Positions 6,030 to 6,707 of a stretch of DNA of 9,418 nt are shown one piece after another. Positions within the stretch are counted from its first letter, which is position 1, and every line of letters starts with the position of its first letter. Below the pieces are notes generated by a model. It was given only the letters and a program-made list of their open reading frames with translations. It did no database searches and had not been told where the DNA came from. The translations under genes were made by a program, and so were the position numbers. The DNA is from a virus (taxonomy: Duplodnaviria; Heunggongvirae; Uroviricota; Caudoviricetes). The stretch is from positions 1 to 9,418 of the IMG/VR virus record IMGVR_UViG_2778261154_000013; one strand, 5' to 3'.

Positions 6030-6121
6030 TTAAATTTAGCACTGTTAAAAATTTAATCCTTAACCGGAGGGATTTCTGCACCCTCAAATCATCAGGAGAC
6101 CGCCCGAAAGGGCGGTAATGA

Positions 6122-6340
6122 ATGGTTACATTATTTAGAAAAAAATATCCGCGAAAGAGTAGAACAACAGAATTCCTGTTTCTCATTCTGTTTATCGTGT
6201 TGATGACACCGATATCCCCGCTAATTTTTGTCTGGATAATCGGAAAAATAATTGAGCCAGTTATTGAATTGTATAACGACGTGGTATGGGCGTCATTCAA
6301 CACACTGCACAATAAAATTAATCCGTATAAGGAAAGCTGA
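6122..6340 (+). CDS. Hypothetical small membrane protein (one predicted TM helix), AT-rich moron
   Basis: 72 aa; hydrophobic stretch FLFLILFIVLMTPISPLIFVWIIGKII; AT-rich codons unlike the flanking genes; stop 1 nt before the HNH start; SD AGGAGA (6094-6099) is separated from the ATG by a hairpin. Confidence 0.5.
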   Translation: MVTLFRKKYPRKSRTTEFLFLILFIVLMTPISPLIFVWIIGKIIEPVIELYNDVVWASFNTLHNKINPYKES

Positions 6341-6341
6341 T

Positions 6342-6707
6342 ATGGCACTGACGAAAAAACAACGTGCAGAACTGCGCATGAAGTTCGGTGGTCGCTGCGC
6401 TTATTGCGGCTGCGAACTTGGCGAAAAGTGGCATGCAGACCATGTAAAACCGGTCATTCGTTTTGATGGAAATATGCTTCACCAGGAACGTGACGATATA
6501 TCCAACATGGTACCAGCATGCCACCCATGCAATCTGCACAAGCATTGCAGTAGCCTGGAAGATTATCGACGAATTATCAGTGATGGTCGTCGTGAATTCC
6601 TTGCGTCCGGGAAAGGCAAAGCGCTGGTTCGTATGGGATTGGTTGAAATGAAATCTGACCCGGTTGTGTTCTGGTTTGAAAAATATCAAGAAGGGGCTAC
6701 GGCATGA
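6342..6707 (+). CDS. HNH endonuclease
   Basis: 121 aa from ATG 6342 (SD AAGGAAAG); HNH zinc-finger nuclease motifs CAYCGC...WHADHVKPV...NMVPACHPCNLHK. Confidence 0.85.
   Translation: MALTKKQRAELRMKFGGRCAYCGCELGEKWHADHVKPVIRFDGNMLHQERDDISNMVPACHPCNLHKHCSSLEDYRRIISDGRREFLASGKGKALVRMGLVEMKSDPVVFWFEKYQEGATA

Follow-up and report, generated by a model that had tools for sequence, protein, structure and literature searches.

Split ribosome-binding sites, in which an RNA hairpin lies between the Shine-Dalgarno sequence (SD) and the start codon, were reportedly described for genes 38 and 25 of bacteriophage T4 by Nivinskas et al. (1999) and by Malys and Nivinskas (2009). They have been shown experimentally in few cases, these two genes being examples. 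Formation of the hairpin changes the spacing from 22 to 5 nucleotides (nt) in gene 38 and from 27 to 11 nt in gene 25, and mutations that destabilise the hairpin of gene 25 lower translation (PMC3014915). T4-type phages also carry PeSL cassettes, short conserved intergenic motifs that flank small genes of the hyperplastic regions (PMC2839356, PMC4122927). For lambdoid phages, boundary sequences have been proposed at mosaic joints (cited in PMC3029335). The locus described here is similar to all three in some features. It lies at positions 6030-6707 of a 9418-nt stretch of DNA from a tailed phage (IMG/VR record IMGVR_UViG_2778261154_000013, Caudoviricetes; "the window" in the following) and holds an intergenic leader, a gene for a small protein of the DUF4014 family and a gene for a small HNH protein.

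The stretch lies in a lambdoid prophage of Escherichia coli that is similar to Rac. It is part of the rightward early operon and belongs to the accessory "ea/nin-like" region. The chromosome of E. coli strain VL40 has 100% identity to a 704-nt query that represents the cassette. The DUF4014 and HNH genes occupy a variable slot of one to four genes, which in lambdoid and P22-like phages has Ead/Ea22-like genes on one side and EaA/DUF551-like genes on the other (Ead-EaA slot). We consider it probable that the stretch is composed of three independently recombining modules: the leader, which would act as a split translation-initiation region, the DUF4014 gene and the HNH cassette. Both genes are ordinary members of already annotated families and are shuffled independently. 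The leader is mildly new, and it is the only new part of the stretch. The coordinates of all features are listed in Table 1.

Table 1. Features of the leader, of the two genes behind it and of the flanking genes (window positions; aa, amino acids; bp, base pairs)
Feature	Position	Strand	Remarks
Upstream zinc-ribbon-like gene, 118 aa (phrog_1621)	5673..6029	+	stop TAA 6027-6029; usual left neighbour of the leader
Conserved intergenic leader, 92 nt	6030..6121	+	acts as an independent mosaic module; unannotated
Perfect 9-nt AT-rich inverted repeat, ATTAAATTT-N11-AAATTTAAT	6029..6057	+	its first base is the third of the upstream stop codon
Weak hairpin GAGGG (6067-6071)/CCCTC (6081-6085)	6067..6085	+	9-nt loop; -7.2 kcal/mol; variation confined to the loop
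Shine-Dalgarno sequence AGGAG	6094..6098	+	23 nt from AUG linearly; predicted duplex with the anti-Shine-Dalgarno sequence (anti-SD) -7.4 kcal/mol
Main hairpin ACCGCCC-GAAA-GGGCGGT	6099..6116	+	perfect 7-bp stem, GAAA tetraloop; between SD and AUG
DUF4014 gene, 72 aa	6122..6340	+	stop TGA 6338-6340
Shine-Dalgarno sequence AAGGA of the HNH gene	6329..6333	+	8 nt before ATG 6342, within the 3' end of the DUF4014 gene
HNH gene, 121 aa	6342..6707	+	ATG 6342; one base (T6341) after the DUF4014 stop
Downstream gene, 221 aa	6704..7369	+	start overlaps the HNH stop (ATGA, 6704-6707)

The leader as a proposed split translation-initiation region

An initial inspection of the sequence (the preliminary description) had noted that the SD (AGGAGA, 6094-6099) is parted from the start codon (ATG 6122) by a 7-bp stem with a GAAA tetraloop (6099-6116). 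This arrangement is confirmed in the sequence. The linear distance between SD and AUG is 22-23 nt, and it becomes 5 nt once the 18-nt hairpin is looped out. When folded with ViennaRNA, the hairpin is predicted at -14.1 kcal/mol and is paired in >99% of the ensemble, and AGGAG is unpaired with a probability of 0.79. A 111-nt sequence containing the leader is predicted to fold more stably than shuffled sequences (z = -2.56, with 5 of 200 shuffles being equally stable). The 22-nt motif that consists of SD and hairpin occurs once in the window, where the number expected by chance is 0.

This is the geometry of a split ribosome-binding site (23 to 5 nt with a predicted hairpin of -14.1 kcal/mol). 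The closest parallel is T4 gene 38, where the SD is likewise too far from the start codon in the linear sequence (22 nt, compared to 22-23 nt in the leader) and a stable hairpin reduces the distance to 5 nt. We propose that the last 28 nt of the leader form a split translation-initiation region, consisting of the SD (AGGAG), the 18-nt hairpin with its GNRA loop, 5 nt and the AUG. Hairpin formation would loop out 18 nt and thereby place the SD 5 nt from the start codon, similar to what was shown experimentally for T4 genes 38 and 25. Based on the predicted folding and on the analogy to T4, the hairpin may thus promote translation. The unit of SD and hairpin would serve any cassette gene that recombination puts behind the leader. 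In contrast to the T4 split sites, the leader is found in E. coli lambdoid prophages, is portable before at least four, probably five, unrelated genes, and has no support from covariation. A DUF4014 gene of the type found in phage 933W has no hairpin and instead has a contiguous AAGGAG, which is 6 nt from the start codon. The looped-out spacing thus agrees with that of a natural hairpin-less site of the same gene family.

Of 5426 complete E. coli genomes surveyed for the leader, 2622 (about 48%) contain it, at 4259 places. The leader is much more widespread than either the DUF4014 or the HNH gene. What follows the leader is variable. Among 192 copies of the SD-hairpin unit, at least four, probably five, unrelated families of open reading frames (ORFs) are found downstream, and the start codon is always 5-10 nt past the hairpin. 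The distance is 5 nt for DUF4014 (84 copies), 6 nt for the 60-aa DUF7167 protein (49 copies), 8 nt for a family of 135-187 aa (30 copies), 10 nt for a family of 171-174 aa (6 copies) and 6 nt for an ORF of 66 aa (1 copy). The suggestion that proper SD spacing is attained through the formed hairpin is therefore upheld in silico, by the folding as well as by the recurrence of this geometry before at least four, probably five, unrelated genes. The upstream side is more uniform. The loci fetched for comparison contain 79 leader copies, 75 of them with a scorable upstream ORF, and in 72 of the 75 this ORF is the zinc-ribbon gene. In ArgO145, the leader is preceded by an Ead-like gene.

BLAST alignments of the stretch break recurrently at about 6022, at 6117-6127, at 6329 and at 6725. 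These breakpoints delimit three modules, which are the leader, DUF4014, and HNH together with its own SD. The latter (AAGGA, 6329-6333) is the left edge of the HNH module, and matches that cover only the HNH gene start at window position 6329. In addition to its proposed role in initiation, the conserved leader would provide homology for the swapping of cassettes. The breakpoints point to recombination between leader copies, as do direct copies within one contig. Four viral contigs (L114, L135, L173 and L181) have two direct copies of the SD-hairpin unit, 1063-1064 nt apart, which enclose a DUF4014 gene and a zinc-ribbon gene. Such paired copies could allow deletion or the formation of a mini-circle.

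In being located at the breakpoints of cassette swaps, and in sometimes occurring as two direct copies, the leader is similar to the boundary sequences proposed for lambdoid mosaic joints. With the PeSL cassettes, it shares that it is short, conserved, intergenic and adjacent to small genes. It differs from them in that it would be a signal for translation, not for transcription; a crude scan found neither a sigma-70 promoter nor a U-tract terminator. It is tempting to speculate, although we put this forward tentatively and with more doubt than trust, that the leader represents a portable regulatory linker not described before, found in lambdoid prophages from Escherichia and Shigella, which sets the translation of any accessory gene placed behind it and also supplies homology for exchange in the Ead-EaA slot. 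If true, about half of the sequenced E. coli genomes would carry a counterpart of the T4 PeSL cassettes that operates at the level of translation. A functional leader would represent a natural, portable test-bed for the accommodation of a looped-out hairpin by the ribosome and a concrete candidate for the boundary sequences that have long been proposed to drive lambdoid mosaicism. It would also help to annotate start codons in the Ead-EaA slot.

Among species-representative genomes, the full motif matched Escherichia, Shigella and one metagenome-assembled genome (MAG) from Collinsella sp. only. The Collinsella scaffold (L103, 3 kb) carries the complete 29-nt SD-hairpin unit (50.8 bits), which is probably E. 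coli prophage DNA that was mis-binned into the MAG. When 68 loci from Salmonella, Klebsiella, Citrobacter, Yersinia and other sources were searched with a covariance model, no diverged SD-hairpin was retrieved. Matches to contigs from Clostridia, Chloracidobacterium and Dysosmobacter comprise a bare GC hairpin only. An apparent "hairpin-less" match to the leader (L252/L253) was discarded because it sits inside a coding region.

The leader has two additional elements upstream of the SD. One is the inverted repeat listed in Table 1, the spacer of which varies among relatives and is 5 nt shorter in ArgO145. The other is the second hairpin noted in the preliminary description (GAGGG/CCCTC, 6067-6085), which is present and predicted to pair. 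There are variants in which the leader is split by an inserted gene for a 70-aa protein (L024). The GGAGG of this hairpin then serves as SD of the inserted gene, and the 3' arm is absent. Judged from these variants, the second hairpin is probably a relic junction.

When the whole window was scanned with Rfam at E-values up to 1, no family matched the leader (6030-6121). The leader contains no promoter-like site, and neither of its hairpins is followed by a T-run. An antitermination RNA of the boxB/nut-like or put-like type was considered, based on the general properties of such RNAs, and was rejected. The leader is ~4 kb away from the early promoter, it has no boxA, and the GAGGG/CCCTC hairpin is lost in split leaders. 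An out-of-frame ATG at 6118 starts an ORF of six codons (MNGYII, window 6118-6138), which overlaps the DUF4014 start. Given its absence from the ArgO145 variant, this ORF is probably incidental.

Distribution of the DUF4014 and HNH genes

The two genes assort independently. In the genome survey, DUF4014 was found in 1024 genomes (1735 places) and the HNH gene, counted at a coverage of at least 80%, in 386. The two are adjacent in 217 genomes, so that the pairing is missing in ~44% of the genomes with HNH and in ~79% of those with DUF4014. The preliminary description had suggested that the membrane protein and the HNH nuclease might be a toxin/immunity, exclusion or abortive-infection pair. This does not hold up: the genes are shuffled independently, the HNH gene has soluble proteins as neighbours elsewhere, and the HNH family is the wider one.

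DUF4014 occurs without HNH in the phages 933W (L0067), epsilon15 (gp46) and ES18 (gp39). HNH genes without DUF4014, at 97-98% DNA identity (98-99% at the protein level), are found behind genes for soluble proteins of 135 aa and 128 aa; one of these loci belongs to a genomic island that also carries ParB and STY4528-type genes. In the prophages from Yersinia, Klebsiella, Salmonella and Citrobacter that were examined, HNH is located behind NinB, an Ead-like protein, P22 EaI or a 66-aa zinc-ribbon protein. A small membrane protein is thus not a constant upstream partner of HNH, as the upstream neighbours elsewhere are soluble and none is hydrophobic. The DUF4014 family comprises 127 clusters, with named sources only from Escherichia, Shigella and Salmonella. 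The HNH family comprises 700 clusters from Enterobacterales and beyond (Salmonella, Klebsiella, Citrobacter, Yersinia, Pantoea, Providencia and even beta-proteobacteria), including many genera from which DUF4014 is absent.

The gene order is not fixed either. In HK225 (L225, 3001-3593) and g341c (L094, 2082-2719), HNH is directly upstream of DUF4014, with a 4-nt overlap. There are 42 viral contigs with a DUF4014 gene of the epsilon15 type. HNH is directly upstream in 11 of these, and the other 31 have none within 2.5 kb. The HNH alleles at this upstream position are only 60-71% identical to one another, while the DUF4014 genes at these places are 86-96% identical. The reversed order argues against the logic of an operon in which immunity precedes the toxin. 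A toxin-immunity or toxin-antitoxin pair is not supported. Obligate co-occurrence is not seen, as 217 of the 386 HNH genomes have DUF4014 adjacent, and the order is not constant, with HNH first in HK225, g341c and the 11 viral contigs. A known anti-phage defence system, such as Septu (PtuAB), is not indicated either: in PADLOC-DB, the neighbours have no match, and no PtuA-type ATPase is adjacent. Searches in PADLOC and NCBIfam gave generic HNH-domain matches only (the best to PtuB, 31.6 bits over ~70 residues) and none for DUF4014.

A single 194-aa protein from Shigella sonnei (P0122) combines both domains (PF13198 and PF01844), with DUF4014 fused to HNH over the gap of 1 nt. As it is one member on one contig of 2.9 kb, it may be a sequencing or frameshift artefact.

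The HNH cassette has also been lost, and it has been found in distant contexts. E. coli NCTC86 (L277, 1392-1559; corresponding to window 6649-6707) has a chimeric ORF of 55 aa that ends with the last 15 HNH codons (VVFWFEKYQEGATA). Its N-terminus (MTTITKER...ALASLEAEP) resembles that of the 221-aa protein encoded downstream of HNH in the window, and the chimera is common among E. coli genomes. From its sequence, this ORF is best read as a scar left by loss of the HNH cassette through recombination. The "ALASLEAEP" region near the N-terminus of the 221-aa protein is also found in proteins that precede HNH elsewhere. In phage Bas77 (L223, 1-489), an HNH homolog is the first gene and lies just upstream of the gene for the large terminase subunit. 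It has 49% identity to the window HNH (tblastn; 60% over the best local alignment) and 82% identity to the HNH of g341c, which has DUF4014 as its neighbour. The latter value shows that the HNH cassette moves between unrelated contexts.

The DUF4014 and HNH proteins

The 72-aa protein is a clear member of Pfam family DUF4014 (PF13198; 90 bits compared to a cut-off of 23.2), with residues 1-71 aligned to positions 1-71 of the 72 profile positions. It also matches phrog_1832 (E = 1.5e-44). The preliminary description had reckoned with a membrane ORF that might not be conserved; DUF4014 is a conserved gene. The protein has a basic N-terminus, one strongly hydrophobic segment (maximum of 2.68 in a 19-residue Kyte-Doolittle window), which is a helix kinked at a P-x-x-P motif, and a conserved LHNKINPY motif at its C-terminus. 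The AlphaFold model has helices at residues 14-28 and 32-66, with a proline kink. According to the positive-inside rule, DUF4014 is probably a small single-pass protein of the inner membrane with its N-terminus inside. Its kin (933W L0067, epsilon15 gp46, ES18 gp39 and g341c gp23) share the length of 72 aa, the proline-kinked hydrophobic helix and the LHNKINPY motif. The window protein is a typical member of the family, with no differing feature.

Members of this family have been labelled as "O-polysaccharide acetyltransferase inhibitor" or as "released from the phage upon host infection". These are inherited annotations, and the epsilon15 record now has gp46 as a hypothetical protein. According to a review from 2022, the inhibitors proposed for epsilon15 were never investigated (PMC9558356). 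Literature searches on "DUF4014" and on the acetyltransferase inhibitor label returned nothing relevant. Small phage proteins that alter the O-antigen, namely Gnarl1-3 and Iap from Pseudomonas phage D3 (PMC12373910), are likewise small accessory proteins, and their role is of the kind hinted at by the old DUF4014 label. This is an analogy only, and no sequence relationship is claimed.

The 121-aa protein belongs to the HNH endonuclease family (PF01844; 28.2 bits compared to a gathering score of 21.4) and to phrog_2118. Its motif set is intact (C19xxC22, H31-A-D33-H34, N55, C60xxC63-N64), and these residues are invariant in 48 homologs. The structure is predicted with confidence (predicted local distance difference test score 91.7). 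Among solved structures, those most similar in fold are the HNH domains of Cas9, Cap5, Gme HNH and McrA, all of them weak matches (best Foldseek E-value 0.008), and the sole sequence match in the PDB is 4H9D (E = 0.058). The latter is the Gme HNH nicking endonuclease from Geobacter. With it and with small phage HNH proteins, the window protein has in common the ββα-Me core, the CxxC...CxxC zinc site and a length of ~120 aa. The invariant His and Asn residues are also common to the small free-standing HNH endonucleases of phages. In contrast to these, the window HNH has no close solved structure and is located in an early accessory slot, not beside terminase genes. It is thus predicted to be a minimal free-standing HNH nuclease. 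We propose that it is a cassette with its own SD that moves among many phage contexts.

Alternative explanations

Several points weigh against the proposed three-module structure with a translation-promoting leader, and most of them concern the hairpin. The 17 sequence variants of the hairpin comprise 0 double changes, 7 one-sided changes that keep a G-U wobble pair and 3 singletons that break a pair, and hence show no compensatory covariation; shuffle controls were uninformative. Since covariation is absent, the hairpin may have been conserved through recent common descent. The restriction of pair-keeping changes to wobbles hints that selection acts on the RNA of the sense strand, but the numbers are small. 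The 3' arm of the hairpin (GGGCGGU) is itself predicted to pair with the anti-SD (-8.2 kcal/mol) and has a canonical spacing of 5 nt to the AUG, but it is sequestered, being paired to >99%. As this arm may be a sequestered cryptic SD, the hairpin could repress translation instead of promoting it. In addition, the minimum-energy fold of the window variant pairs the AUG in part, which is unpaired with a probability of 0.16. The hairpin would then be a repressive or stabilising RNA element and not a translation enhancer, which we regard as rather unlikely. In the repressive variant, the SD is held too far from the AUG, the cryptic SD is hidden and expression is low. Other conceivable roles are a protein operator, a processing site or an exonuclease barrier, and stable GNRA hairpins are common as stability elements. 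Hairpins in T4 initiation regions can also block translation (PMC3014915). What speaks for a split initiation region is that the distance between hairpin and start codon is strictly kept at 5-10 nt over at least four unrelated genes, with an open AGGAG that abuts the stem. The looped-out spacing is also the same as at the hairpin-less 933W site, and extended pairing of the AUG is not common to the other downstream genes.

The remaining point against three independent modules is that adjacency of DUF4014 and HNH is above that of uniform random placement, occurs in both orders and involves diverged alleles. There may thus be a loose functional or homing link between the two. However, adjacency in either order is expected because both families share the same short slot of one to four genes. 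That the two proteins are functional partners (toxin/immunity, exclusion or abortive infection) is very unlikely in our view. The 1-nt spacing, the 217 E. coli genomes with adjacent genes, the diverged versions that adjoin in HK225 and g341c, and the one recorded fusion (194 aa, S. sonnei) would fit such a partnership. However, many genomes have either gene without the other, near-identical HNH genes follow genes for soluble proteins, the order is reversed in HK225 and g341c, and the HNH family extends far beyond DUF4014. Matches to defence families are limited to the generic HNH domain. Junctions between neighbouring genes are just as tight, or overlapping, all along the operon, and the short distance from HNH to the upstream stop would reflect this normal packing. 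A toxin/immunity or defence pair cannot be deduced from close spacing and a local dip in guanine-plus-cytosine (G+C) content when the genes belong to the early operon of a phage. A better candidate for a link, though still an unlikely one, is that HNH is a selfish homing-type endonuclease cassette with its target in or beside the genes of the Ead-EaA slot, possibly in DUF4014. This would account for the patchy presence of HNH and for its position on either side of DUF4014, and it is compatible with the explanation given for the other two modules. HNH shows the sporadic presence expected of such an element, being polymorphic for presence or absence in otherwise similar contexts. When within 2.5 kb of an epsilon15-type DUF4014 gene, it directly adjoins that gene in all cases (11 of 11). 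The same position beside the much more similar DUF4014 genes is held by at least three HNH alleles, which have the 60-71% identity given above. The family is also found in hyperplastic regions of T4-like phages (RB49), a member from a Caulobacter phage is annotated as "homing endonuclease", and the similarity of the g341c allele to the Bas77 HNH beside the terminase genes indicates movement between unrelated contexts. On the other hand, the protein has only 121 aa and lacks any additional DNA-binding domain that could be recognised, two cassettes that share a slot of one to four genes would be expected to adjoin just as well, and neither a target site nor a co-conversion tract was identified. 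Finally, HNH might assist terminase cleavage during packaging, as an accessory protein of the HK97 gp74 type, and the Bas77 homolog has the matching location. The preliminary description had reasoned that an HNH gene standing alone beside terminase genes elsewhere would speak against a pair. This applies to the Bas77 homolog (49%), but not to the window HNH. In the prophage, the terminase genes are lambda-like and are located ~9 kb downstream of the stretch, beyond the lysis genes, and closer homologs of the window HNH are found in the early and nin regions of prophages. This makes a packaging role highly improbable.

Anatomy and base composition

Both genes are tightly arranged. The stop codon of the membrane protein gene is 1 nt ahead of the HNH start, as had been described, and the coordinates read from the sequence agree. 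The stretch had also been described as an AT-rich cassette. This is true for the leader (G+C 0.424) and for DUF4014 (0.356), which together form a 311-nt stretch among the lowest 3% of windows. It is not true for the HNH gene, the G+C of which (0.481) equals the window mean. Third-position G+C is 0.425 for DUF4014 and 0.434 for HNH, compared to 0.43-0.46 for the neighbours. As the values of both genes match those of the neighbours, the dip reflects the membrane segment, which is rich in Phe, Ile and Leu, and an AT-rich spacer, and not a foreign origin.

The separately acquired moron that the drop in base composition had suggested is thus not supported. Apart from third-position G+C, which is the same as in the neighbours, this is indicated by a scan of positions 5600-7000 for promoters and terminators, in which no promoter-like or terminator-like site was found on the plus strand; the scan was crude and the negative is weak. 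A moron in the sense of Hendrix has its own promoter and terminator. As no such site flanks it on the plus strand, the stretch does not qualify in this strict sense.

Prophage setting

The left part of the prophage has, in this order, recE/gam-type genes, a repressor with a cro-like switch, ydaT, a ydaU-type replication gene and a DnaC-like gene. These are followed rightward by DUF977, DUF4406, an Ead/Ea22-like gene and the 118-aa zinc-ribbon-like gene, which precedes the stretch analyzed here. To the right of the stretch are the 221-aa gene, a DUF551 (EaA-like) gene, hok/sok, a Q-like region, tRNAs and the lysis genes.

Three minor observations were made on these neighbours. The YdaU/DUF1376-type gene is a single unbroken ORF of 399 aa in the window (2409-3608, plus strand), which RefSeq breaks up into two pseudogene fragments, both partial (window 2409-2921 and 3300-3608). 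Between them are 126 aa (2922-3299) that are encoded in frame and are not matched by any Pfam family. At the left end, upstream of the repressor region, there is a DicF-like match (window 57-107, minus strand), which is below threshold (28.6 bits compared to 48, E = 0.0056). The hok/sok locus, a type I toxin-antitoxin system, spans window 8020-8344. The Rfam sok model matches at 8020-8194 on the plus strand with 118 bits (gathering score 59), and the Hok/Gef ORF (8189-8344) lies inside a longer ORF (8132-8344).

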